A stretch of 64,000 nucleotides of DNA from Monocercomonoides exilis PA203 (GCA_001643675.2 LSRY02000001.1:1178001-1242000); one strand, 5' to 3'. Positions 3,483 through 64,000 are shown, counted from the first letter of the stretch. The notes: a model not told the origin generated them from the sequence alone. Numbers and translations: made by a program.

Positions 3483-3750
3483 GGGGGATAATACGGACTT
3501 TCAAGCATTTTTTTGCACAAAGCATGAAAAAAATGTTCCTATTCTAACATATTAAACTTAACCAGATTTCAAAACAAATTTGATTTTCATATTTGCAAGC
3601 AAATATCATTGATAAAAAACATTAAGTTTTGTGACATCACATTTATTTCAGAAAATAAACCCATTTTTTTTAATTTTTTGATCACAGAAAGTTCATCTTT
3701 AATGTATAATTTTTCAATGAAAATGCCTAAAGACAAATATTTTGTCCCAT
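3483..3750. mobile_element. ~270-bp MITE-like repeat, copy A
   Basis: Collinear with 10724-10990 along its length. Ends are imperfect inverted repeats (GGGGGATAATACGGACTT ... AAATATTTTGTCCCA). Confidence 0.7.
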
Positions 3751-9518: not shown

Positions 9519-9837
9519 TTGCTGCTTCTCCTAAATCTTTATCGAACACGAGTTTTGAAATGAGTGATATGGCTGAACGTGTCAACTCAATATCGAATAA
9601 AAATTGTCTAAATCATTCAAAGAAATTTGCTAACAAATAAGCCTTTCCCCCAAATTCTCTACTCGTTCGGGCATCCAGTTCCATCAGGAAAGCCTGCTAA
9701 TTTGCCAAATAAAGAATATCCAAAAGAATACACTATCCACGTCGTCTTCCACATGCTCCATTTCAATTCAATGGTTAATCTGTTGTCAATGTTGTCTCTC
9801 TCTGCTGTTCTGAAATAAAACTGTTCACCTCTCTGTC

Positions 9838-10125
9838 TTACCATAACTTTGCTGCCATGTACTGTCCCGGTGGAAGCGTTGCACCCGCTTGAGTCATTCC
9901 TATTCCAGGCTTCAAACAATAATTGCTGTGATTCCAGATTATGCAACGCGTCATTAACTTGTACAAGAGCTGACTCCACACCTGCCCTCTCCAATTCGGT
10001 AGGAGCAGAATTGCTCTCGCTTTCTCTGCTGCTATCTTCCGAAGTGTCGGAAGCAAAAGCGGAATTGGAGGATGTGCCCAAACTATCTCCTGACTCCACT
10101 TCCATGCGAGACAGTCTTCGCACAT
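9838..10125 (-). pseudogene. DIRS-type N6-adenine methyltransferase-like domain
   Basis: DCLAWKWSQEIVWAHPPIPLLLPTLRKI..EKARAILLLPNWRGQVW matches the Dam-like module that follows RNase H in DIRS1 elements. Confidence 0.75.
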
Positions 10126-10249
10126 GTGGCTTCCTTGTACGCACCACCTTCTCAGTTTGTGGTTTCATCTTGATGCGAATGCGAAGATGGCAGGTTGCAT
10201 TTTCATTTTTCGCAGAACTTCTTCTATCACTTTCGTTTTTTATTTTGTA

Positions 10250-11880
10250 GTCTCCCACTCGCTCCAGACGAGATTGAGCGTCTGCTTCTATATTGTTTGC
10301 TCCCGGAATATGAACTGCTTTCACTACTAGTTGTTCCTTCGTCATAAGGCTGTAAATCCTCTTTAATAGACATCTCAGAATTCTTCCTGCTCCTCAACGA
10401 TTGATGTTGAAAACTGCTGACTTGTTGTCCGATCTGATCAGCAGGCGATTCATTTTATGTTCTGACTGTCACGCTGAATGATATGTGGGAGACAAACTTC
10501 TTTTGAGCAATTTGCAGAATTGCTCTCTCAGCTGTTGGCGATGCATCCGTTGTTAATATAAACTGCCAATGAAGCAACAAGTTGAGCCTGTGTATCTGGA
10601 TGTGGAATAGACGGGTTTGCAAGAACTGAATTTGTACACAGACATTGTGACTGAATCGGAATGATCCACTACATCCTGCCTTCTTTATTGCATTGGATAA
10701 AACTTCGCAAAGCTTATTTATATTGGGGAAAATACGGACTTTCAAGCTTTTTTTGAACAAAGCATGAAAAAATAGTTTCTATTCTAACATATTTAAACTT
10801 AACCAGATTTCAAAATAAATTCGATTTTCATATTTGCAGGCAAATATCATTGATATAATAACATTATGTTTTGCAACCTCAAACGAATTTCAAAAATTAA
10901 TCCATTTATTTCAAATTTGTTGATCACAAAAAATCATCTTTGATACATAATTTTTCAATGAAAATGCCTAAAGTCAAATATTTTGTCCCACATGCAGTAT
11001 GGTATCCATCACAACAAATCTGAATGAACTGTTTCATCCCACAAATCCTGAAAAATGCCTGATTCTCATTTGCACGTTTCTCAATGCAATTTTTGGCCAT
11101 CTTTTGCACATTGCGCACACGTTCAACCTCCTCTTCTGTTCCAAGCAAACACTCATCTGGTTCGTATTTCATTCCCATCCTAGAAATGTGAATGCCAGCA
11201 TGGGATACGTCACGCTCTTCTCCATGTTGATGATGATACACAACGTTTCGAACCACTGATCAATCTCTCATTTTATTTTTGTAAATTCTTCTTCATCTTT
11301 TTTAGTGAGGAGTACGTTATCGATAAAAGAAACACAACGAACGTTCCATCCATTTCTCATTTTCTTTACTGCCTCCAACACGACCTTTGCAAAGATGCGA
11401 GGAGCATTTTTCATTCCGAATGGCATGCATTCGAATTCGATGTTCTTGTCATAGAGCTTTTATGAAAGGAAAGGGATGAATATTTCGCTCACTGGAATCT
11501 TAAATTGTGCTTTAAAAGTGTCTGGTAATGTTGAAAAGTCTTCTTTTTTTTTAAGCTTCTCGAATGTGCACAAGTCTTCCATCTTGAAATGAGTATCCTT
11601 TACGCTGAATTCAGAGGGACGCAGTCCAAGGCTTGGAGGTATTTTCCGTTCTTCTTGTGAATGAAGAACAGGTTGCTGAGATATTTGACAACCAATTTCT
11701 TTTGATCCCTTTGAATTCTGGCTTGAACTCCTTCCTTCACCTTGCGTGAGCATTCTTCTCACTCTGTCTCCGTCAAATGAATCCTTCCCATCCGCAACTT
11801 CATTTTCCAGCATTAATCTTTCCTGTTTCCGTTTCCACACAGGCTCGACTCCGTTGGAAATTAATCTTTTCACTTGCATG
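10250..11880 (-). pseudogene. Reverse transcriptase / RNase H of the DIRS element, interrupted by a MITE
   Basis: MPFG motif, YxDD box degenerated to FIDN, RNase H TDAS / SDN / N..AD..SR motifs. Several frameshifts. Confidence 0.8.
10724..10990. mobile_element. ~270-bp MITE-like repeat, copy B, nested in the DIRS pol region
   Basis: Direct-orientation homolog of 3483-3750. Imperfect TIRs TGGGGAAAATACGGACTTT / AAAGTCAAATATTTTGTCCCA. It is an AT-rich block splitting the RT-RNase H coding sequence. Confidence 0.75.
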
Positions 11881-21949: not shown

Positions 21950-22160
21950 GAAGTTTCTTTTTGATAATTTTGATATATTTTATTTCACCAAAATCCCATT
22001 TCAAATTTCATTTTTTCTTTTGATCTGCAATTTGCAGAAATGCTTTTTTGATGTGTCAAGATAATATCTATATAATGTTGAAGTGTTTCATGAGGTTAAT
22101 AACGATTTCTGCAAATTTCCACGTTATAAAAAAGTTTTCATGATCATTGAGATCATTTTT
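21950..22160. repeat. Left arm of an imperfect ~200-bp inverted repeat pairing with 27460-27675
   Basis: CCCATTTCAAATTTCATTTTTTC and AACGATTTCTGCAAATTTCCA have near reverse complements at ~27598-27623 and ~27496-27516. Confidence 0.65.
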
Positions 22161-22933
22161 ATACAAAAAAATTTTTGTTGATCTGTTTTGAAAAATTCAT
22201 GATGAATTTTTTTGAGTTTGTTGGTTTTCTATATATGACATTGCTATATGGAAGAATTAAAAATGATTTCAATTTGAAAAATGCTTGTTTATTCAAATTT
22301 GAGTTTTTTTCGAAATAGAAAAAAGATCAGTGAAATGAAAAAATATACGTTAAAAAATAACAATCGTTTTGCAATCAAAATGACATAAATAAACAAAAAG
22401 CACTTTATGATATTAATCATTTAAAAAATTGAAAACAGTTAGAAATTTTCTAATCAGATTCAATAACTTTCAAAAAAACATAATTCTATCACATAATCAT
22501 TGAACATTCACAAAATATCAACCAAATGTCAACAATTTTGAACAATAAAAGATATAAGAAAAAACAATACTATAACAACAAATTCACAGTATCAAATACA
22601 ATTCCTAGCAAAAAAGAACACTTATATAAAAAGTTCAAAAACTGACTTGTCTATTTTCCCTCTGTTTTCCATCCACTCTCCCCTTTCTGATATTTCTCTA
22701 ACTTTGACTCAAAAAGATCAAATCCAACAAAGAAAAAAGACAGACACAATGATAAAACATCACTTCACACTCTCAACAACTCTCCCTTCCAAAAACCTCA
22801 CTCAAAGATCAATGAATTCCCTCACAACTCTCTCTATTAGTGAATCTCGATATATACATAAAAATTCGGGACAATAACCAATTTAATTATAGGGACATTA
22901 TAGGGACAAAAAGCACAAGAAAACAACCGGATT

Positions 22934-23071
22934 CTAACTGTTGTGTACCTGGGAGGCTGTTCGTCGTATCCAGGTCCGGATATTGCAGCCCGAAGGCTGC
23001 AATATCAAATACGAACAGTCATGTCCAGCACCCTTCCGATAGAGTACCAGCTAAGCATACACAACAACTAG
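22934..23071 (-). ncRNA. Putative structured RNA element (~140 nt) directly 3' of the USP-transposase stop codon
   Basis: Four stems readable by eye, including a perfect 12-bp hairpin with a cUUCGg loop (22979-23006). Wobbles are G-U only on the minus strand. GC-rich island in AT-rich surroundings. Confidence 0.6.
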
Positions 23072-23075
23072 TTTC

Positions 23076-26000
23076 TTAATAGGGGACACCAAAAGAACAA
23101 TTTTGAGATTCATTAAAAGAAGAAGAGTCAAGAAGAAGCTCAAATCTCCTTGAAAGAAGATCCTGAGAAGATTGAGAAAGAAGAGAAGAGTTTGATGATG
23201 TGATATCAGAGTGAAATGACTTCCTTGTTCGTTGAACCTTTTCTTTCATTGTCGAAGATTCGAGGGCAACCAGAGAGCGTTGAGGAAGATATCCAACAGC
23301 TGAAGCACAGACAAATGAGCCTTTGCGCTCAAAATACAAGTAATCTTTCATGTGGGGAACTGACAATGATGGCCATGAGACTTGTTGAGATGGTACATAT
23401 TCTTCAAAGTACCTCTCATGCTCAAAGTTATTGACAGATGTCGAAGATGGTGAAGAGTTTGATGATGATGTTGAGAAGTTGTTCGATTGTGAAGTTGAAG
23501 AAGCTGATGTCGAATTATTCATATTGTTTTCGAAGAAGTTGATTAAGTCATGAAGTGTTGTGATGTGTTCAGTCGAAAGATTGTTGTCAATTGCATTAAC
23601 TAACGCACCAAATTCACTATCACAAATATTCTTTCCATGGTGCTCAGCGAAGAAGTTGAGTTGAGTATTTTTCTTTTTCAGGAGTTTCGATTGTTTGGAG
23701 AGGATGAAGTAAAGAAGGAAGCGATTTCGGTTGTGTGGACCCGAATCGCAGAAGAACTTAAAAGTGTGAGTGTCTGAAAAGAAGTGTCTTTTGATCACAG
23801 ATTCCAGACACTCAATAACAAATCTGTGATCATTTGAAAGGCAATCGGAGAAGAAGTTGAAAGTTCGTTTTATTTTTTGATTTTTTATTTTTTGAAGAGA
23901 GATGATTGTGAATTGAGAGACTTGTTGATAATTGAAGAATTCTTGTTGAAGTTGATTTTTTCTTATGGGGAGTTTCCATTTCTCTTTGAAGTCGAAGACG
24001 AAGACTGCCTCTCCCTCTTTAAGATTATCAACAGTTGATTGATAATGTTTTCGTTGCATTTCTGCAACAAGACGATGTTGTCGAAGAAGTTTTAAAATGT
24101 GAAACTCAGCAGAAGAAAGTCCATTTTTGTTTTGTGAAGATTTTAATTTGTTTTCCAGATAGTTGAGTTTCTCGCACATTCCGCAGAGATCTGTGCGCCT
24201 TTTTGCTTTGGAGAAGTTGGTGGTGAGTTTGTAGAAGTGAGATAATGAAACTTTGATGTTTGTTTCATCTGTAAACTCTTTCCATAATTTCGTCTTGGGC
24301 TTGAAGATTAACCTCTTTTCATTGGGAGAAAAGATGCCCGTTTTCTTTCTTTTTTCTTTCAGTGCTTCCAATCCATAACTTGTTGAAATTGACGAAGAGA
24401 GTGGAGGAATGGAAGTTGTTCGATGAGGTGGAGTGATGAATGCGGATGACAGAGTAGTTGTTATTGTTGGAGTTAATGTTGTTGTTGACGATGATGATGA
24501 GTTATCTGAAGTGTTTAAATTTGATGTTTCTGAAGAAGAAGATGAACCACCAAATTGAATAGTTGAAAGCGTTGGTCTTGTTTTTTCTTTTGTGTAGAAT
24601 GAAAGTGAAGGAGTGTAACCTTGAGCATAAAGATCCTTCCATGCCTTTATCCAATTTTTTTTCTCCAGTTCAGTCACGCCAGCATCATTGCAAACATTCC
24701 ATTTGAAGCGATTTCCGCTCTTTCTTTTCACCACAGCTATGTAATGCCCGTTTTGTTGATCCATTCGCTTATACAGTATCTGCCCAATAAGATGATAAAT
24801 AATAATCTCCTTATTGCTCTCTTTATTATGTTGAATGTTTTCTTCTGAATACCCTTTGATAAACGTTCGCTGGTTAGCACGATCAGTTTCAATAAGCAAC
24901 ATGCTTGATGGCTCAGAGCTGGACGTGTCAGTGCATTCGTGACAGAGAGCTAGCACCTCTGGAAATGCAGCCATTTCCTCCCATCGTGAAGTGCAGCACT
25001 TCTCTTTGCATTCATTGCAATAAACGGTGTTCTTTCCATCCAATATCTCTGTTGCAAAGAGAGATGATAGACCTTTGTGAGGAGAAGATGAATTAATTAC
25101 CACATTGTTGCTAATTTCATCGAATTGATTTGAAACTTTTTGGCATTGTTGGCATTTCAAATGAGTGATCAAAACAGGATTGAACGTATCTTTATTTATC
25201 AGCTCATCTTTTTGAAGAAGTTGGTGAAGATTGTCAAATGCCTCAACCACGTTTTGCTGCTGTCTACTGCCATATCCACAAAAGTCTTCCCATTTGTTGA
25301 TCAGTGATGGGACCCACGAACGCACTGCCATTCCATCTTTGGCAAGTTGTTTGCAAACACTCAATACACGAGAAGATAAATTGTTTTTTGATGATGTGGT
25401 TTTTATTATTGATTGTTTTTGTGAAGTGATTGAAGACATGCATTGAAGAAGAGAGGAAAGATAGCAAGTGTTTCCAAGATTTTGCAAGCCTTTAACTGTT
25501 TTTGATGACGAATTGGAATCTTCATTCTTGTTCGAAAATATTGATGAAGAAGGAGATTGAATTGCGGGAAGAAAATCAGTTGTGTTGCTGTTAGACATGA
25601 TTTGAGGAGAATGATTATTAAGTGTTTCATCTCTTTCATCTGTTTGTGTATTATATTGAGAAGAAGAAGAGTTAATTTCTTTTGAAAATGATGAAAGAAG
25701 ATTTTGGAATGCTTGAGGAGGAATAAGAGTGGGTGAAGTGGCATATTCGACTAATTGATCACTCACACACACATCATCGTTGCGAAAGGATGCTGAAGAT
25801 TTTTCGATACAAGAAGAATTTTTTGATTCTTCTTGTTGCTTTTTGGAAGAAGAGGAAGATGAGGAAGATGAGGAAGATGAGGAAGTGGATGACGATTGTT
25901 TTGTTTTGAAGAATTTGTGAATTGGGATTGGAGAAGGAGATGAGTGACGTTTTTGATGTGATTTATTTGTTTTTCTTTTTGTTGAATCCCTTTCTCTCCT

Positions 26001-26863
26001 AATTGGAGTGCTGATTGGAGTATCAACAGCTTGAGATGGAGAAGAATTTGGTGAAGAAGAATCATTTTCTAAAATAGTTTTTAAATTTTTATTTTGCTGA
26101 GATGATGAAGAAGATGAAGAAGATTGTTTTCTTTTTGAAGAAGAGTTTTCTGTAATTATTTCTTCTTCCCAAGCCTCTTCGTCTATATATCTCGTAAAGT
26201 CCGGCTCAGCTCGCTGCTTTTTCTTTGCAGATTGAAGAGAAGTTGACGCTTCTGTTGAATGGGCCAACATCCAGTTGTTGCCCTTTTCCCAGTCCTGTTC
26301 AATTAAGCCTTAAAAAAATAGAGAAAATTATTCAAAAAAATTATAAATAAAAACAAACCACTTTTGCAAGACGGAAGATGAGGTTTTTGAGGAGGAATGA
26401 TAAATCCTTGGTTTTTCTTCAGTGTTTGCTTCGCATAAATAAATTTTCCCTCTGTCACATCATATCCATAGTCTTGCAAATCGGATAATGATGTATTGCG
26501 AGATAGCGCTTGAAGCATTGTTGTTTGAGTGTGCAACGGAGCGTTGTTGTACACCACAGACAAGTCTTCCAGCAGCTTAATGTGATATTCTGTTTCAAAA
26601 AAAAAATAAATAATAAACAAATATAAATAAAAAAAAAAAAAAAAACAAAAGAAGAAATAACATTTCTAACACAATACAAAAAAATAAAAAACCAAACCAT
26701 TCAAAGACTTCAGTAAATCATTAATTACTGAAGATGATTGCCTATAGTTGTAAAAGAGATAGACAAGCAATGAATCCACGTCATCTCCACCTATACGTTT
26801 TATTTCGTTCCAAATAACTTTGCATCGAGAATTAAGAGTTGATTGAGGTTTAGAAAAAGACAT
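23076..26863 (-). CDS. Sola2-like DDD transposase with an embedded ubiquitin-specific protease (USP/peptidase C19) domain; 3 exons, ~1209 aa
   Basis: Exons 26863-26698, 26589-26359 and 26308-23076 join in frame through two phase-1 GT-AG introns (3630 nt). USP: GLQNLGNTCY, QQNVVEAF, CQQC/CNEC, GHYIAVVK, W..CND (~25490-24590). Transposase: TDLCGMC...H, VFDFKEKW, QEFFNYQQVS, SND..FV, CDSGPHNRN, FFAEHHGKNICDSEFG. Confidence 0.85.
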
Positions 26864-27459
26864 TTTTATGTTGAAAGTATTTTAATAATGGTTTGATGAT
26901 ATTAGAAATTAATATGCTGTTGTTTGAATTAATAATACTTTTTTTTTATTTTTTATTTTTTTTTATTTTTTTTTTTTTTGGTTTTGTGTTGATTCTGAGA
27001 AAAATTGACAAATAAAATATTCAAGGAGCTTCCAAAAATGAATTTTTATTGTTCAAAATTATCCTTCGAAAATTTGCCAACAAGTCAAAACTGACATAAC
27101 TCAAATTTCTTTTTCCACATTATCTGAGAATAACAATAACATCAAACAACAAAATATGATTTTTTTAAAAAATAGTAAAAATGTCATACATATAACTTAA
27201 AATAAGCATTTCTATCTCAATCAAAATTTTAATATATATAACAGTTTTTTTGTGTTTATTAAAAAAATGACTTTCGTTAAAATTGGATTTTTTTTTAATA
27301 TTAATTTTTCTGGAAAATGATAAGTTTTTTCAAAACATTCTTTTTTCTATAATGACGAATAATAACCATTGAAAATATATATCATCCATTGAAATTAAAA
27401 AAATAAAGAAAATTTGTGAAAAAATGTTTCAAAAAATATTCATTCTGAAAATTGTTCAA

Positions 27460-27675
27460 TTTGATCTTATTGATCATTGAAAGATTTTAATTACTTGGAA
27501 ATTTGCAGAAATCGTTTTTGCATTTATGAATCTCTTCTTTATATCATTTATACCATTATGAGCTAATAAATAATCAATTCTGCAAATTCCCGATCAACGA
27601 AAAAATGAAAATTTGAAATGGGTTTATAACAAGAAAAATAAAATTTGATTATCTTATGAAAAACTTCGTTTATTG
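27460..27675. repeat. Right arm of the imperfect inverted repeat pairing with 21950-22160
   Basis: GGAAATTTGCAGAAATCGTT and GAAAAAATGAAAATTTGAAATGGG reverse-complement the left arm. Confidence 0.65.
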
Positions 27676-33445: not shown

Positions 33446-34256
33446 TCAGCGAGAAAGATGAAGAAGAAAAAGCGGGAAATAAAGAAAAGAAGAAAAAGAA
33501 GAAAGAAGAGGAAGTGCATGATGAGTGGAATGAATTTCTTTGGCGATTAAGGAGCGATAGAGGATGTATGTGGAATGAGAATGTGAAAGAAACAATAATG
33601 GAAAATTTTGGATGAAGAACAAAGGGGATGGAGAAGAAAGTTTGAACGCCAAATAATCAGGAGAATAGAGAGAGATAACGAATTTGAATCAGTTGTTATT
33701 GTTGGAAATATATTCTTTTCCACAGTTCTTTCTTTTGTTTTGCTGTTGAAGCTGAGCTACAAAGCTGGAATGATGATTTTGTGATGTTAAATCCAAAGAA
33801 ATAAAAGATAACGAACAGTTCTCTTTTTTTGAAAATCAAAAAAATAATAATTTTAATAAAATTCCAAACTTTTCCAATGTTTTTTGTCTTTATTTTACAA
33901 TTGTTGGTATTGTTCAGTAAATCTTGAAACTTCTATTTCTTTCTGAAGTTTTATTTGTTTGTTTTTGGTTCAATTTCTTATAACTTCATCAAAAAATTCT
34001 ATTTCACCAAAAGCTAGAAAAAGGTGTGAATTATATATATATTACAAATATATATTACAGAAATTAAAGCTAAATATTTACAAAAAAATCAATTAAACTC
34101 TTTGATCAATAAATACCACAATAGAATTTATTTTTTCGATTTTTGATCTTTTTTTATGATATCAAAAAAAATCACCCATTTATTGTTTTTCGAAATCAAA
34201 TTAAAATATATGAATTCGAATAATTTATTTTCGATTTTGAATTAATCATTATAAAA

Positions 34257-34938
34257 GAAAGATATAGTATATCAGCAATAGATACATCTCTATTAGGTTA
34301 ATCAATATTATCGATTTATGAATATCTACTGGGTGTTATCATCTTGTGTAATAAGTTGGTAGGCAATGGTAATAATATAGAGATCGATGATTATTGCTGA
34401 TACTCTCAGGGGTTTCTCATGATTAGATATTCGGTGATGTTCTATAAAGAAGGAGTTATTGATAAGTGTAATCGAGATATATCTATAGCTGATATGCAAT
34501 ATCTCCAAGGAGGAAAATTAGCTAAAAGATTAACTGGAAGATTAACGAAAGTTATGTTCAAGTTGGTAAATTAATGGTGAAACTGTGTGAAAATTGGTGT
34601 TTTCGTTGATGAAATTGTTGATGAAAAACATGAGTTGAACATGTATCGAACGTTGATGAAATCGTTGACATTATCGTGAGTGAAATCGCAAATAAAAATA
34701 ATTGATTTTGTTTTTTGTTTTATAGCAAATGGGTCTGAAGAAGATATACGCAACTGTGAAAGAAGCTAAAGCGGCTCAACAAAAACAGATTAAACAGTTT
34801 CAGGAAAAGCGTAAGGAAGAAACTAAGTATTACAACGAACATGTATCTGAGAAACAGAATAAGTTGATAAAGATATTGAGGAGAAAGCTTATCGAAGATG
34901 ATGAGCTGTTAGATGAGTTGATGGAAAAAGTTAATGGT
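34257..34938. repeat. Left terminal inverted repeat (~682 bp)
   Basis: Reverse complement of 38038-38719. The mismatches I noticed are within the outermost ~10 bp. Confidence 0.95.
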
Positions 34939-34980
34939 TATTGCCTGCACAGGCTTGATTGGGATAAATGTGTTTATTGA
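34729..34980 (+). CDS. Small basic coiled-coil protein encoded in the TIR (copy 1)
   Basis: MGLKKIYATVKEAKAAQQKQIKQF..., identical to 38005..38247 up to KVNG; the C-termini differ beyond the TIR boundary. Confidence 0.55.
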   Translation: MGLKKIYATVKEAKAAQQKQIKQFQEKRKEETKYYNEHVSEKQNKLIKILRRKLIEDDELLDELMEKVNGYCLHRLDWDKCVY

Positions 34981-35479
34981 TGAAATATAACTGACTGAAC
35001 ACGTTTGTTGTGTCGTAGATTATATCAAACATTAGTCACGATTGCATTATGGTTGATTGCCAACATCTTTATTTTTGATTGGAAAAAGTGTCAACCCGTG
35101 TCCAGGACACCGAATTGTGGTAATATCAATGACTCAGCTGAAGGGGAATATTTGATTAAATCTCCGTGCCAAAAGCGTAAACCGGTAAACCGGTAAACCG
35201 GTAAACCTGATCTTTTAATTTCAACTGAAAAGAGCTGCCAACATGCCATTTCTGCCAACATAAGCATTTTCCCCCTAATTTGGCATGATTTCGAGGGTTC
35301 TTACTCATTTTCGATTGTGTTGTCATTCTGCCACATTGCCACATGGAATAGTTGGTGGAACACATCAGTTGTATTGTTTTTGTTTGAATGATTCCAAAAA
35401 TACGAATATGTTTAGTTGATTTCCACAGAACAGTCCATGTCATCTTCTCTTCGTTTGAGGAGTTGTTCAGACTCTGGCT

Positions 35480-37750
35480 TGAGTTTGAAACACCACACTT
35501 GATTTCCTTTTCCACCTACTCGTATTCTCTCACATCTGTCTTTGATTGCTGGTTGGAATGAGCGATCGTTCTTGTATTAAGCTGGTTTGAAACATAGTGC
35601 ACCAGAACATCTCCACACTTCTTTGAGTTTATTGTCATGCTCCTGACAGAACAAATCGATGACAGAGAGTGATGCTGCAATGATATCTTCCTTTGCCTCC
35701 GTTGTTGGAATAGCCCTTATGTTGAAATTGGAGAGATCTTTGCTGAGGAAATAGCAGAGAAGTTGTTCATAGAATTCATCGTAGAAAGAGTTTGTGAAAT
35801 CCTTGAAGAGTGTGAGATTGTTCTTATATTTTGAGTTACAATCACAAACAACATATTTTCTGTCACCAATCTCAATCTTTACAGGGTGAGTGTGATTTGT
35901 CACAAATATGAAATTAGCAACGTTCTCAGTTGTTCTTCTTGGCTGATTCTTCTTATTTATTCCGATTGTTGAATCTGCAATTATACTCTTCAATACGTCA
36001 AAGTTAGCTGTTCGATCATCTCCAACGTTTTTCAACTCATGAAGTACAATGAACATTTTCCCTTTGAAGATGGAGTTGAACTGTCTCGTTTGTTCTGCAA
36101 TCTCTGTGACATTTAGACATGAATATCCTGTCAACAGTTTAGCAAGGACATATGTCCAGACATTCTTTCCAATTCCTTGTAAACCTTTGAGAACAAGTGA
36201 TGTTTCTGCTTTTTGACCAGGATTTTGAACAATTGACGCAATCCAACAGAGGATGTGTTGACAGAGTTCATCGTTGTTGTTGGCGATAACTTCTTGTGTA
36301 AAATCAAGGAATGGTTTGATGATTTCGTCATTTTGTTCGTTTGCCGTTTGGTATTTGAACCCATGGAACAGAGAGAATATTTGAGGGTTATCTGAGAAGA
36401 ACTTCACCCCATCAATCGATAGAACGTGTGAGTATTGTTCGAAAGCTGTCTCAACTGTGAGAGTCTTTTTGTCATCATGCCACAGTTTTATTGTTTTGAA
36501 CAGTTCGCACATTGCTGATTTTGTCTTGAATGTAATTGAATAACAGGAGGTGTGAATTTCAAACTCTTTCACATTGAATTCCATCCTTGCTTCATCAAAT
36601 CTTAGAACTTTTGTTAGATCTTCAGTGACTTCAGACAGCGAGGATAATTGCTTTCGACAAGCTTAATCCCTGATTTCAGAGAACGAGCACGATGAGTTGA
36701 GATCTATTTCATGAACAGTGATCTCTCGTGCAGGTTCTTCCTTTTGCTCATTCTCTTTTCTGAGGAGTGGAATGATTATATCGTTGAAACATGTTGGATT
36801 CCATCCCTTGACAATCTTTTGAAGAACAAATGGATGTGACTTGTGATCCCTGTGCCTGTTTTGTTTCTCTTCATAGTGAGTGATTGCATTTGCTGTCAGA
36901 GCAGCTGTTTCTCTGATTTGATTGAAAAGAAAATCAATTGAATTGTTGTTGAAACCATTAATATTGATGAGAGGATTGAGAGCTGCAAATAACGGTAAAA
37001 GAGTTAACTCAGAATCAAGTGACAAAGAATCTGTGTCGTTATGTATTTCAACATCTTTGAGTCCATCTACAAGAGCAAGAGCGACAGTTGGAGACATATC
37101 AACAATTCCATCTTTTGTGAGAAGATTGTGTGGTTCAGCTGCAATTATCGCTAATGTATTCTCTGTTTTGAGGTTCTTACCGAATATGTCAAGAACACTC
37201 TCAAGTGATGAAAGATCTCTGAGCTCTCTGTAATTGTTGAGGGGAATGTATTTGGTGATGATTCTCTCGCCATCTTTCATCTCTCTGTATGAAGTTTCAG
37301 CTTGAACAACAAGCCTCTGTTTTCCATCTCCAATTCCTGCAAAAATGTCGATATTGAACTCTGGACTCGTTATCATCTTGGTTTGTGACGAACATTTATG
37401 GGGATAACCACACAGCTCACAATAAAAATGAAGACCACCATGAACTGTTTGAACAAGTCCTTCATTTCGGGGGAGTTTCTCGAAAATGGAAATCCTGATG
37501 GTTTTCGTTTTTGTTCAGCTTGGAGGGATTTGTTGATATCAACATCAACGACAAAAAGATCCTCACATGTGCTGATATCGACAGCTGTTCCAGTGTGTCG
37601 TTGGCCCTGCTTCTTGTCAGAATATTTCTTGCAGTCGAACAAATCAACAAGGTGATCTTTCATTAGTTCTCCAAGCGTTTGCTGTTCTGTTGACATTGAA
37701 TCAATTAATTGTTGGATAATGTTGTCAGAGTCTGTTTGGGGGTTTGTCAT
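35480..37750 (-). pseudogene. Prim-Pol (AEP bifunctional primase/polymerase) fused to a D5-like SF3 helicase, ~750 aa, disrupted
   Basis: From ATG 37750: LFVVDVD, then after one frameshift (~37505) VQTVHGGLHFY and NIDIF. In-frame TAA at 36663. Helicase Walker A LKGLQGIGKN, Walker B IVLHEL, motif C FIFVTNH, then DRKY. Second in-frame TAA at 35577. Confidence 0.85.
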
Positions 37751-38004
37751 TTTAGAAAAAAAAAAAATAAATATTTTTGAAACAGATTTATTTTTTTTAC
37801 CTGAATTTACAGGGAAGATGACGTTGAGGTTAATGTCGAAAATGAACGAGGAACAGTTAATTTTCACATTAAATGTATTTTGCCCACTTTGCTCACTTTG
37901 CCCGTTTGCACACATAATTTCAAGAATAGGATTGACCCAGTCCACCCGGTCCAAGTGAAAAAAACGGAGATAAAACTCAATATTTCCCAGCCACAACATC
38001 CGAA

Positions 38005-38247
38005 TCAACTACTCAGTTGACCTGGTCCAGGCAAATGACCATTAACTTTTTCCATCAACTCATCTAACAGCTCATCATCTTCGATAAGCTTTCTCCTCAA
38101 TATCTTTATCAACTTATTCTGTTTCTCAGATACATGTTCGTTGTAATACTTAGTTTCTTCCTTACGCTTTTCCTGAAACTGTTTAATCTGTTTTTGTTGA
38201 GCCGCTTTAGCTTCTTTCACAGTTGCGTATATCTTCTTCAGACCCAT
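38005..38247 (-). CDS. Small basic coiled-coil protein encoded in the TIR (copy 2)
   Basis: Duplicate of 34729..34980 inside the right TIR, pointing inward. Confidence 0.55.
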   Translation of the reverse strand: MGLKKIYATVKEAKAAQQKQIKQFQEKRKEETKYYNEHVSEKQNKLIKILRRKLIEDDELLDELMEKVNGHLPGPGQLSS

Positions 38248-38719
38248 TTGCTATAAAACAAAAAACAAAATCAATTATTTTTATTTGCGATTTCACTCAC
38301 GATAATGTCAACGATTTCATCAACGTTCGATACATGTTCAACTCATGTTTTTCATCAACAATTTCATCAACGAAAACACCAATTTTCACACAGTTTCACC
38401 ATTAATTTACCAACTTGAACATAACTTTCGTTAATCTTCCAGTTAATCTTTTAGCTAATTTTCCTCCTTGGAGATATTGCATATCAGCTATAGATATATC
38501 TCGATTACACTTATCAATAACTCCTTCTTTATAGAACATCACCGAATATCTAATCATGAGAAACCCCTGAGAGTATCAGCAATAATCATCGATCTCTATA
38601 TTATTACCATTGCCTACCAACTTATTACACAAGATGATAACACCCAGTAGATATTCATAAATCGATAATATTGATTAACCTAATAGAGATGTATCTATTG
38701 CTGATATACCATATCTCTC
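38038..38719. repeat. Right terminal inverted repeat (~682 bp)
   Basis: Reverse complement of 34257-34938. Confidence 0.95.
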
Positions 38720-39232
38720 AAAATGATTTTATTTTTTCCGAAATTTTAATGTTGATTTTCGAAAATGAATTATTTTTGGTGTATTTGTTAAAAATACTTT
38801 CAACTGAAAGTTACATATCAGTTTCTCTTTCAATTTTTTTCTTTTTCTGAATATTTTTTTAAAAACAATAAGTTTCCAATTATTTCAAATTGAAAACTTT
38901 AAAAACTTCTTTCATTTTTTTGAAAGATTATCGATCAATCATTTACACAATTTATCATTCATATTTGAGAAACAAAAGGGAAAATTTGAATACAACATAA
39001 AAATACAAATTGAGAAAAAAATTAAAGAAAGAGAGAAAAATATTTCACGTTTTCTTTCATAAAGAATAACAATATCACAATCATGAATAATTGAGGATTT
39101 AGAACAAAAATCACACTTACGCTTCCAAAATAACCATAATAAATTAATATAAAAGCAAAAATACTGATTATCAAGCTCTTTAAACATTTTATGATATAAA
39201 ATTTTTTAAGCATAAATAGAAAATAATTAACA

Positions 39233-57597: not shown

Positions 57598-59817
57598 CAG
57601 TCAGAGGCAAATCCTGGGACAAGGACAAAACGCGGGACACTAAAGTCAAGAATAACTATTTTAAATGTTAATTTCAAACAATTCCAAATCAAAAATCAAT
57701 TTTTGATAAATTATTATAATTTCATCCTCTGAATGCATGTCAAAATAATAGTCTCTTCAATAAGAAATTATATCAAATAGAATGATCAAACTTCCATAAA
57801 TTATTTGAAAAAAGCAAACGCATCATCACTAGTCCCTTACAAAAAATTATTTTCGATAAAGATTTCTGTGGAGTTACTTAGGCTCTCTGAAAAAGTTGAA
57901 AAAGTTGATTATCTTCTGAAACAAGATTGAATCATTCCTTCAGATTTTGTGAAAGATAAAATCATTTCTCATTTTTCCATCTGCAGGCATATTGCTTCAA
58001 AAAAAGCAAAGCGTGATACTCAGCATGTAGGCAGACCGGGGCTATTCAATAAAGAAGAAATCGAGGAAATCGAAGATAGTGCAATTGCTCAAATATCATC
58101 CACAAACAAATTGACAGTTTCAGACATTATCAGATTCGTGTGTTGTTTTGTGTTTATTTTATTTTATAATTGTTCATTTTTGATAGTCAGAAAATGTGAT
58201 GATGAAGAAAAAGAAAGAATAGACATAAACGCCTGAAGTCAGGATAATCAGCAAAAAATGAACATGCAAGTTGATAAAGAAAAGTGGATACCTGAAATTA
58301 ATAAAATCAACTTTTATTGATCTTCATCGCATTCAAGCATCTGCAATTGAAAATATGAGGAATTGGTTTTCGTTGTTGATAAATGAAATTAATGGTTATC
58401 TGATTTCATCAGATTTAATTGTCAATATGGAAGAAACTGGCATCTTGATGAAGCAGTCGGACGAGGAAATAGTTGTCGCAAAAGAAACTCAACAAACTCT
58501 TTTTCCAGATGTCCAGCGAAGAAAGAATGAAACATTATTTTTTTCTATTTTTGCAGATGGAATGTCACTTGATCCAATCATGCTATGGCTTTCTCAGACC
58601 ATTTCCGAGAATCCAAAGGAATTAAAGAATAATAGAATTAACTGTTTGGCAAATCGTACAGGCTGGATGACAAGAAGAGATTTTGAAAAGATTATGATCG
58701 AAATATTATTGCCAAAAATAAATGAGAAAAGAGTTGAGCTTCATGGACAGTCTTTTTATGCTTTGATTACACTTGATGGGCATTCCTCTCGCCTAAGTTT
58801 TCCAGTGATATCTTGGTGCAGAGATCATTTAATCCATTTATTGATTCTTCCATCACATACAACACATCTAACTCAGCCGCTGGATAGGTTTGTATTCGCG
58901 CATTTCAAAAACAGCCCAAAAAAGAGTGTTCTCGGTTCCTTCTGATTCGTCAATTTTTTCTTACAGAAAATCATTAATACCTGCAGTATCAGAAGTGGTA
59001 AATAACTCTCTCTCTCCAAGAATAATGAGAAAGTCATTTGAAGCTTTAGGAATTATCCCATTTGACTTTTCTTCCGTATGTTAGTATTTTCATAAAAACA
59101 ACGAAGCCTTTTCGATGACAGAAAAAGCGGTGAATAATTCTTCACATTCAAGCAGTATCAGAATGAAATTAATAACAGGAGACAAAATTTTCGAAGGCTT
59201 TTCCATTCAATTTGAGAAAAAAAAAGAAAAGTTTTCCAAACAGCTCAGCAACAAAGCAAGACGTTGCAATTTCTGAGGTGAAAGAATCATCTTATGTTAA
59301 TGACAAAAGCTCCATTATTTCTGTCCCTGTTGAAAACATTAACTTTCAAAACCATGAAAAGAAAGCAATAATTCGCAATGATGTTTTAACGAACAATCTG
59401 ATAATTCAATGGATCGAAAGGAGCAACCAGATACATCAGAAGAAGAGGTTTCAATTCTTTGTGAAAAAAGGAAAAGAAAGCTTTCTTCAGATAGCGAATT
59501 GGGATCCATCTTCAATTACAGTTAAAAATATTTTCTGTGAGAAGCAAATTATTTGTTCATTGCATGTTAAAACATGATTCAACGTTATTAAACAGTGTTT
59601 TGTTTTCAGTTGATTTTTATATGCCTTTCTTTTTAAACTGCTATTTTGAATGCAAATTCAATTCAGGAAATTTTATTTGGCTTGTTCGATCCACCTTAAT
59701 TCACGAAAAACTGGATAGTCAGAATATTTTTCCATTTTAAAGTGTTGAATTGTGACAAAAAAAAGCTGAATGGAATATCCTAGGTTTTGTCCTTGTCCCG
59801 GGATTTGTCCCAGACTA
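57598..59817 (+). mobile_element. pogo-like DD35D DNA transposon, degenerate, ~40-bp TIRs
   Basis: Left TA|CAGTCAGAGGCAAATCCTGGGACAAGGACAAAAC; right GTTTTGTCCTTGTCCCGGGATTTGTCCCAGACTA. ORF 58271..58945 has NMEETG (first D lost), IFADG, GWMT, LDGHSSR...TTHLTQPLD with 35-aa spacing. Stops and frameshifts present. Confidence 0.9.
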
Positions 59818-61290: not shown

Positions 61291-62255
61291 GGGTCAGAAA
61301 TTTATCGGTACCCAAAAAATTAATCGGGACCTAAATTTTCTGGCTCTCAAGAGCACTTTCAGAAAAAAATAAATAATAGAAAATTATTAATATATTATAA
61401 TATACTATTTCTGAAAATATTTTTTCATATTTTAATTTTTGTGAAAAGATCTGGTGTTTTTTGTTTAATTTTTGAGATCAAAGACTTGCTCGTATTTTCA
61501 TGAGCTTTTTGTTTTGAGATTTTTAAGTATTGTTATTGTTATTGAACATAACTTCTTTATAATTTTGGTTATTTTTCATTGTTTAACACTTCGTTTTTTT
61601 ATTATTTTTTGCATTTCACTAAATTTCGATAAAATTAAAAATAAAATGTGAAATTAGAGTTAGCATGTTTTTGTTCATAAAAGAATAGTTAAAAAACTGA
61701 TTGATATGTGTATCACCAAAATTTTGAAATGAAAAAATATGATTTGAAGTTAAAAGCACAAAAATACACAAAAACATGTTTTTTGAATAATAATCTCGAT
61801 CATTAAAAAGTAAAGATTTTCTTATTTCTGATTACCTTTATTTGTTGATAATTAATATATTTACTCTTTCAAATTAACGAAAAAACTAATTTATTCAGAT
61901 GCATTCTTCAATTTGTCGAAATTTAGTGAAATGGAAAAAATAATAAAAAAACGAAGTGTTTAATAGCAAAAAATAACCAAAAACATAAAAAAGTTCAGTT
62001 TATCAACAATGATAGAACTCAAAACACTCAAAACAAAAAACTCGTGAAAATATGAGCAAGTCTTTGATCAGAAAAATAAAACAAAAAACACCAGATCTTT
62101 TCACAAAAATTAAAATATGAAAAAATATTTTCAGAAATAGTATATTATAATATATTAATAATTTTCTATTATTTATTTTTTTCTGAAAGTGCTCTTGAGA
62201 GCCAGAAAATTTAGGTCACGATAAAAAAAAAGGGGATATGATAAATTACTGACCC
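61291..62255. mobile_element. 965-bp non-autonomous TIR element (MITE/foldback), TA-flanked
   Basis: TA|GGGTCAGAAATTTATC ... GATAAATTACTGACCC|TA. More than 200 bp of near-perfect inverted repeat (about 61329-61505 vs 62040-62217). AT-rich non-coding core. Confidence 0.92.
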
Positions 62256-62586: not shown

Positions 62587-64000
62587 ATGAGCGCAGTGAA
62601 ACAAAGAAAAGAAATTGGACTAACGAAATTAAGAGATTTGATGAAATCTTTCGAGTATCGTCAAATTAAAAATCGATTAGTACGTATTGCCACAATAATT
62701 GCTGACGGAAAATGCCGTGTTACCGACGCTGCTAATCTGAATGAATTCTCTCGTTCATCGATAAACCGAGCTGTAACTGCCGTTGAAAAGGGAAGAACCG
62801 TGGGAAAAGTTGGTCGGCCAGAGCTGTTCACGAAAGAAGACAAAGAAGTGATAACCGGAGTTATCAGAATTGAAAGCATGACAGGAGTGAGTTATTCTTT
62901 AACTCAAACAAAAATATTGGTTTGTATTTTTATTTATTTCTAACAAATTTTTATTGTTAATAACATTCCAAGATGGAATCAGTGCTAACTGATAGAAAAA
63001 TTCGAGGTGGAGAAGAAGAAGATCAAGAAGTTAAAATTTCAAAATCAACTCCGTATTCATTCGTTAAACGAAATCCAGACCTAAAGACATCCATTCCTCA
63101 TAACGTTGATATTCAACGATTATCGGTATCAAACAAACAGTCTCTTCAACCTTTCTTCTCTCTTCTGCAATCACTTCATGATTCTCACAAATACTCTCCT
63201 TCTCTCATCTTCAACACCGACGAATCCTCTTTGCGCCTTTCCGACACCACAAAACAACTAGCCGTTCATCCTTCAGATGTTCCAGTCGGGTTTTCCAAGA
63301 CACCAATCAACATGCCAAACTCAACTCTTGTGGTTGCAGTTGCAGCTGACGGTTATTCCTTACCAAGCCTTGTTCTTTGGCCATCCAAAAAACTTCCACA
63401 AGAAATGAAGGTCTTGCTCAGCCCGCAGCTTCACGCCTGGGCAGACAATGATGGATGGATGACAGATGCATTGTTTGCTCGCTATGCTGAAGAGATACTA
63501 CTGCCTGGAATAGTTGAAAGAAGAAAATTGTTAGACATGAATGAAGATAGATGCTTGCTTCTCTTGGATTCTCATCCTTCAAGAGCACAGCCAGATCTGT
63601 GGCAAAAATTTGCAGATGAATCAATTGACGTTGTTACATTTATTCCACACAGTACTCATCTCACACAGCCACTTGACTGCGGAGTTTTTGCTGTGTTTAA
63701 AAGATGTTTCAATTCAAACTATGTTGTTCCATCATCTTCTTCGATCGCACTCAGACGAAAAGCAGTTGCAAATGCCTTGCCACAGGCTTTGCAAACTGCA
63801 TTGCTACCTTCAACGATTCACTCTGCATTTGAAAAGAGCGGCGTGTTGTCTGGGCAGTCCAATTCCGTATTGATGAAGTTACCTGACACTCCTTCTGTTC
63901 AGCTGAAAAAAAAATCCCATCGTTTCAATTTCCATGGAAAAAATATATCCGACCAAGCATTTTTAGATGAATGGAAAGAATGCAAAAAGATGAAAGAGGA
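62587..64000 (+). CDS. pogo-like (HTH + DDE_1) transposase, 2 exons, 3'-partial
   Basis: Exon 62587-62919, intron 62920-62972 (GTTTGT...CCAAG), exon 2 apparently open to the window end: IFNTDES, VAADG, DGWMT, LLLDSHPSR...STHLTQPLD (DD35D). Confidence 0.9.

Follow-up and report, generated by a model that had tools for sequence, protein, structure and literature searches.

A two-gene terminal-inverted-repeat element in Monocercomonoides exilis, probably a Polinton-like derivative reduced to its termini and a primase-helicase replicase

Polintons, or Mavericks, and Polinton-like viruses (PLVs) are the closest described systems to the element considered here. Long terminal inverted repeats (TIRs) characterise Polintons/Mavericks, whose autonomous members carry a protein-primed B-family DNA polymerase (pPolB) and an rve integrase, and PLVs are recognised by a major capsid protein (MCP), a minor capsid protein and an A32 ATPase. 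Mavericks start with AG repeats and are flanked by target-site duplications (TSDs) of 6 bp (PMC8097293). Transpovirons are small, TIR-bounded and capsid-less and are regarded as descendants of PLVs that lost genes; at ∼7 kb they have 6–8 genes, encode a superfamily 1 (SF1) helicase fused to an inactive pDNAP and are associated with mimiviruses (PMC5499653, PMC3671162). The end modules of PLVs, with their mobile D5-like helicases, also place a primase-helicase beside inverted repeats, but come with a tyrosine recombinase or endonuclease and belong to larger genomes; an integrated PLV without a detectable integrase has been reported as well (PMC11296320). Helicases fused to unknown domains have been noted in elements without a detectable polymerase (PMC10120064). 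The present element occupies positions 34257..38719 of a 64,000-nucleotide stretch, called the window throughout, of the oxymonad Monocercomonoides exilis PA203 (GCA_001643675.2 LSRY02000001.1:1178001-1242000; one strand, 5′ to 3′).

The best explanation of this locus is a dead copy of a multi-copy, two-gene TIR element, probably a reduced and helper-dependent Polinton-like derivative that kept its termini and its replicase. The 4463-bp span is bounded by two arms of 686 nt (34257-34942 and 38034-38719) with 3 mismatches between them, which make up 30.7% of its length; the initial annotation had described near-identical TIRs of ∼680 bp amounting to about 30% of the element, and both values hold. 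In length the arms are long TIRs of the Polinton/Maverick kind. They enclose a gene for an archaeo-eukaryotic primase (AEP)-type primase-polymerase (Prim-Pol) fused to a superfamily 3 (SF3) helicase, and each arm contains one inward-pointing open reading frame (ORF), 83 aa long in the left arm and 80 aa in the right. This small gene had been overlooked in the initial annotation. With the start context that it shares with the replicase (below), it points to an element of two genes, the replicase and the small TIR ORF.

Features of the element, by position in the window:
34252..34257, no strand: left target flank, AAAA (34253-34256) if the ends are 34257/38719 or TAAAAG (34252-34257) if they are 34258/38718.
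34257..34942, plus strand: left TIR, from repeat comparison; the family terminus is probably 34258, a register read from loose ends of sister contigs (short contigs of other copies) at the mirror end.
34260..34504, no strand: left sub-terminal fold-back, with 48-nt stems 34260-34307 / 34457-34504 that are 81% complementary (E 5e-9).
34729..34980, plus strand: left arm ORF, 83 aa, beginning within the left arm, lysine/glutamate-rich, with a T-rich leader and AAATG; 86% identical to the annotated MONOS_17995.
35412..37750, minus strand: AEP Prim-Pol fused to SF3 helicase (DUF5906, NrS-1-like), a pseudogene, from Pfam, PHROG, motifs and fold matches.
38005..38247, minus strand: right copy of the arm ORF, 80 aa, upstream of and co-oriented with the replicase.
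38034..38719, minus strand: right TIR, reading from its end 5'-(G)AGAGATATGG; the family terminus is probably 38718.
38472..38717, no strand: mirror sub-terminal fold-back, from self-comparison and a shuffling test.
38719..38724, no strand: right target flank, AAAA (38720-38723) or CAAAAT (38719-38724; 4/6 match to the left flank).

Scans of the ORFs within the element, with Pfam and library searches, detected no integrase, transposase, pPolB or capsid ORF, confirming the lack of integrase and capsid noted at the outset. No ORF of at least 150 aa is present inside it beyond the pieces of the replicase and a 211-aa frame containing the replicase start. The pPolB and rve integrase of autonomous Polintons were not found among the element's ORFs, nor does the element hold an MCP, a minor capsid protein or an A32 ATPase, the last of which is found beside relatives. 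It is neither an autonomous Polinton or PLV, since it is without pPolB, integrase and capsid, nor a transpoviron, whose helicase is of the SF1 type; on this point the link to transpovirons suggested by the initial annotation fails. In contrast with transpovirons, its helicase belongs to an AEP-SF3 fusion, its genes number two, its copies are chromosomal and no giant virus is known for it. It would work like a helper-dependent mini-Polinton or, by analogy, like a transpoviron.

The replicase gene runs on the minus strand from an ATG at 37750 to a stop at 35412. This copy displays a DxD motif (VDVD), TVHGGLH, the Walker A sequence GLQGIGKN and, in the Walker B region, VLHEL where 22/22 intact homologues have LNE; the five motifs tested are all present in each of those 22. 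The C-terminal half matches DUF5906 (Pfam, E 4e-18, above the cut-off) and the PHROG primases (E 1e-18), and the N-terminal half has no Pfam match. A model of the natural paralogue P0034 (pLDDT 88) superposes on the pRN1 Prim-Pol with Z 9.8 and a root-mean-square deviation of 3.5 over 153 aligned positions, and on NrS-1 with Z 8.1, the top 13 rows all being primase-polymerase or replisome entries. A full-length paralogue model matched the C-terminal region (CTR) of NrS-1 (E 5e-13) and also the PrimPol of African swine fever virus (ASFV). Judged by these models, the N-terminal half has a predicted AEP Prim-Pol fold; the C-terminal half is an SF3 helicase, by the DUF5906 match and the NrS-1 CTR fold match. 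Motifs, DUF5906 and the pRN1 and NrS-1 folds bear out the two domains proposed initially. NrS-1 polymerase, pRN1 ORF904 and ASFV PrimPol share the AEP Prim-Pol, a helical domain and the SF3 helicase with the element, but are at most 20% identical and belong to phage, archaeal plasmid or large-virus hosts. Fusions of the NrS-1 and pRN1 type prime de novo and unwind DNA with a hexameric SF3 motor. Plasmid and phage matches to the replicase cover the helicase part only, at no more than 30% identity.

The relatives of the replicase lead towards PLVs. A homologue search returned 31 matches (6 from Monocercomonoides exilis, 1 from Streblomastix strix and 24 metagenomic proteins), a profile search returned 2015 representatives at E 1e-30 or better, and scans of IMG/VR gave 1 distant locus and then none. 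Genomic context was available for 6 loci; with two distant ones and a duplicate of L005 set aside, L005 itself and L002/L003, which overlap each other, remained. The L005 locus is a 9.4-kb AT-rich contig that was filed in a sheep-colon bacterial bin, probably wrongly, and no further contig of its element was found in that bin. Its full Prim-Pol-helicase (36–40% identity; 36% over 597 aa to this copy) neighbours a 299-aa A32-like ATPase (Pox_A32 E 0.002; 50% identical to the L002 ATPase, which passes the cut-off), an 843-aa ORF with what we take to be PolB-like motifs, and an ORF resembling DUF4108, a family presumably linked to Trichomonas. The ATPase family of L005 has 594 homologues in one search. 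In L002/L003, a 43% identical helicase lies between an ATPase (Pox_A32 E 2e-6) and an HNH gene.

A phylogeny of the helicase, a check proposed by the initial annotation, was built with FastTree from 159 helicase domains (38 near-duplicates were dropped from 197), with L001 and L004 (23–28% identity) as outgroups only. The M. exilis clade nests within clades holding L005 (0.89) and L002 (0.87). The tree, together with the two independent context loci, makes it likely, at moderate support, that the replicase descends from a PLV lineage. With the PLVs and Mavericks of metamonads (the Metamonada MCP group of PMC10120064) and L005 and L002/L003, the element shares a related primase-helicase (36–43% identity), long TIRs, a probable AG-starting end, a T-rich leader with AAATG and an integrated, multi-copy state in a protist; metamonad PLVs/Mavericks measure 15–30 kb against 4.5 kb here, and the element is without MCP, ATPase, pPolB, protease and integrase. 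M. exilis itself is reported to have 6 MCP genes in one cluster (PMC10120064 Tables S1, S4), which bears directly on the question of a full-length parent. Two observations concern the relatives themselves. L005:1-9384 is a fragment of a Polinton-like element with both the PolB-like ORF and a Prim-Pol-helicase, a combination that has been called uncommon (PMC3671162), and L002:1150-2649 is a helicase relative without the primase domain, a case of domain loss within the family.

Within M. exilis the element is multi-copy. Counting cluster members, there are 10 replicase loci on 9 scaffold lengths; nine paralogues are 81–86% identical to this copy and one is 43% identical. MONOS_12125 is a full-length paralogue with all motifs present, and a second locus has the TIR ORF and the D5 gene under consecutive accessions, both on one scaffold. 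In four runs of one sample, many divergent copies together cover the whole element. Among the short sister contigs, at least 2 other forms connect the TIR with the helicase end (34940-35213; 38028/35023-35068-35209), and at least 1 connects it with the primase side (34940-37916). Judged by these joints and the consecutive accessions at another locus, the compact layout recurs across copies, and longer versions may exist as well. Depth ratios are 1.4–1.9 (TIR-to-core) and 14–75 (core-to-own), where summed contig depth is not copy number and double placement is possible. The M. exilis genome paper puts unclassified repeats at 35%, and the word poxvirus does not occur in it. No published description of the element was found in a search that lay outside subscription journals and Repbase.

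The small arm gene shares its start context with the replicase. An ATG preceded by AA and a T-rich leader occurs at 3/175 ATGs in the element, namely the replicase start and both TIR-ORF starts, and at 19/2574 in the window background, by a threshold that was set after looking at the sequences; the T-rich leader and AAATG are also found at 8 starts on L005. The search for homologues of the arm ORF gave 1 homologue among 1 candidate. It is not assigned to DUF4108 (Pfam E 0.009, under the cut-off, with no pairwise match to the L005 DUF4108-like ORF). A splice acceptor upstream of it was weighed as an alternative; the shared leader suggests a true start.

The outer 250 nt of each arm form a long imperfect hairpin (z −3.6, 0/200 shuffles, tested on the mirror arm), and this sub-terminal fold-back is a candidate origin or binding array. 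Rfam gave a single match at E 0.39, treated as chance. Sister contigs part from the element after 38718 and run into other flanks (7 and 6 contigs in two runs, all from one sample of one study). The family terminus is probably 34258/38718, so that of the limits first drawn, 34257..38719, the arms are confirmed and the family end may lie one base inside. In this register the right end reads 5'-AGAGAT, short of a full (AG)3, and the left end differs at one base. TSDs of 7–10 bp are absent in either register. The AAAA/AAAA flanks are of low complexity and their register (34257/38719) conflicts with the sister-contig ends; for a 6-bp TSD drifting by 8%, the chance of at least 2 mismatches is 0.23. 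Joints that skip the whole element (34244-38756) are short and AT-rich on their sides, and the TSD was considered without them. The left flank, 34082-34256, is itself repetitive and of very high depth, with loose ends shared at 34082-34084 and at 34179-34184; possibly the element went into a short repeat or landed next to one.

This copy is dead and decayed neutrally after insertion. Its replicase is interrupted by one frameshift near 37515 and by TAA stops at 36663-36665 and 35577-35579, and no intact replicase frame was found in it. The frameshift is not a base-call error, because difference-free contigs cross it in two runs; contigs with the window's letter also exist at the second stop, and the breaks are real because contigs with the same sequence cover both sites. 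An alternative code in which TAA specifies Gln was rejected: homologues have K and E at the stops and end where the gene ends, and host frames read under the standard code. The copy differs from high-depth sister contigs at ∼8% of sites (18/225, 19/242), and of the 24 coding sites listed at which it departs from most or all sister contigs, 7 carry synonymous changes, in line with the 24% that neutral change would give; these 24 coding sites, like the 11 TIR sites below, come from the best-supported 40 of 934 rows.

The near-identity of the arms probably has another origin than recent activity. Independent drift would have left ∼105 differences between them; the 3 observed are at arm positions 3, 10 and 683, none of them further than 10 nt from an end of the arm (p ∼2e-5, post hoc). 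All 11 listed private TIR alleles (11/11) occur in both arms, and copy-specific arm alleles have 1.7–1.9x single-copy depth at 2/2 sites checked, in two runs. Conversion in place between the arms is the likely best explanation. It is also possible that the arms were re-copied in trans from an already dead template, which would be expected to repair the arm tips too. With arms probably homogenised in place, their identity is not a sign of recent activity, and the failure of near-identical TIRs to date this insertion is a caution.

If the element is a reduced Polinton-like derivative, a gut-protist PLV would have been pared down to TIRs and a Prim-Pol/SF3-helicase replicase. An intact copy would have its terminal fold-back or TIR opened by the helicase. 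The Prim-Pol, priming de novo, would then copy the unit of 4.5 kb, displacing the other strand, with neither a terminal protein nor pPolB. A relative in the same genome, one that encodes a capsid, would supply an integrase and possibly the capsid, which would work in trans on the AG-starting ends; mobilisation in trans, one of the options in the initial annotation, is supported as the likely route. Once inserted, the present copy decayed neutrally, and recombination of one arm with the other probably preserved their near-identity. Several points weigh against this account. Replication, expression and mobilisation in trans are predictions, and the full-length parent or helper with the same TIRs is presumed, the element being known here from its own sequence, its paralogues and the sister contigs. 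Independent close relatives with context number only 2, neither contig is a whole element, and no integrase or capsid is present on the L005 or L002/L003 contigs. The PolB-like ORF of L005 is without a match in Pfam, PHROG or PDB, its ATPase falls under the Pfam cut-off, and of the 594 ATPase homologues, none of the 120 listed bears the name M. exilis. The tree supports are moderate, the 24-site and 11-site figures derive from the best 40 of 934 rows, and the 6-bp TSD matches at only 4/6 positions, against a perfect AAAA of 4 bp in the alternative register.

The most serious competitor, though distinctly less probable, is that the copies are plain leftovers, by internal deletion, of a conventional Polinton/PLV whose TIRs they share; the replicase would have survived only through its place beside an end, and the compact form would never have been a replicon. 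The MCP genes reported in the host (PMC10120064), the primase-helicases of PLVs that often adjoin a TIR (PMC11296320), the short length of most annotated paralogues (320–669 aa) and the variable inner junctions among sisters are in keeping with this. However, in sister contigs a TIR lies close to the gene on either side, annotated replicase loci number at least 10 against 6 MCP matches, and the junction variants are small deletions and not unrelated interiors. Rather unlikely, too, is the bolder proposal of a self-replicating, capsid-less and integrase-less oxymonad satellite lineage, a second and independent transpoviron-like origin from PLVs with an AEP-SF3 fusion and fold-back ends. Such a lineage would have spread, with TIRs of its own, as a unit of 4.5 kb, would when intact exist as free linear DNA, and would hijack the integrase or capsid of an endogenous PLV. 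A stand-alone undescribed class, which the initial annotation had entertained, is disfavoured by the membership of the replicase in a large gut-metagenome family, by the position of both close context loci beside Polinton-like virus genes and by the capsid genes reported in M. exilis (PMC10120064). We consider still less probable an independent minimal replicon, a transpoviron analogue or integrated linear plasmid copied by Prim-Pol/SF3 from fold-back ends, with no same-TIR parent and inserted by host repair or an unrelated integrase. It would account for the compact two-gene layout repeated in sisters, the significant terminal fold-back and the want of a clean TSD; transpovirons are themselves thought to stem from PLVs by gene loss (PMC5499653), and many homologues lie on 2–7-kb contigs, possibly just fragments. 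Yet none of the independent close loci outside M. exilis (0/2) shows the compact TIR form, the contigs gave no free linear form, and this copy is dead.

A cut-and-paste TIR transposon, Sola2-like or foldback, that picked up a PLV replicase gene as cargo and owes its movement to a DDE transposase is very improbable. Its attraction is that the 34257/38719 register offers a perfect, AT-rich AAAA flank of 4 bp, set beside the AT-rich 4-bp TSDs made by Sola2 (PMC3627910) and the DDE transposons present in the window; but the sister contigs diverge after 38718 and not 38719, neither register gives a 7–10-bp TSD, the TIR ORF shares the leader of PLV-like genes, and no cognate Sola2-like DDE transposase lies within the element. 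That the inverted duplication is an artefact of assembly or polishing, which the initial annotation had named as a refutation, can be nearly dismissed. Arm mismatches confined to the edges are also expected from read mis-mapping, and the whole element is spanned by no listed contig, but a difference-free contig bridges the right inner junction (37874-38067), the copy-specific arm alleles have the 1.7–1.9x depth given above (2/2 sites), and sisters have the same layout.

Other repeats and transposase genes are present in the window. At 21992-27625, 164-nt inverted arms (72%) surround a 1077-aa ORF on the minus strand (23076-26309) that is free of introns and includes a UCH ubiquitin-hydrolase domain (E 4e-15); its C-terminal part resembles by eye what we take to be a KDZ/DDE-type transposase, and the ORF is possibly a transposase fused to a deubiquitinase. 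An ISXO2-like (Merlin-type) transposase fragment lies at 1675-2325 (E 8e-16), and two DDE_1 (pogo-like) fragments lie at 58262-58945 and 62964-63998. The inverted repeat at 61320-62225, with 323-nt arms that are 90% complementary and 260 nt apart, is like a foldback or a miniature inverted-repeat transposable element. Inverted repeats (74–78%) and direct repeats (94%) pair 870-1052 with 10722-10903 and 3552-3617 with 10793-10858; inside that repeat region a 244-aa ORF (9659-10393), with no Pfam match, bears a by-eye likeness to DIRS-type RNase H remains.

Were the element only a deletion remnant, it would be a matter of routine repeat annotation. The replicase of a large gut PLV lineage can now be named as an AEP Prim-Pol fused to an SF3 helicase, and a full-length replicase paralogue exists that could be assayed. 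If the element is indeed a reduced Polinton-like derivative, it would be a worked case, in a cultured protist, of the proposed route from a PLV to a minimal replicon.

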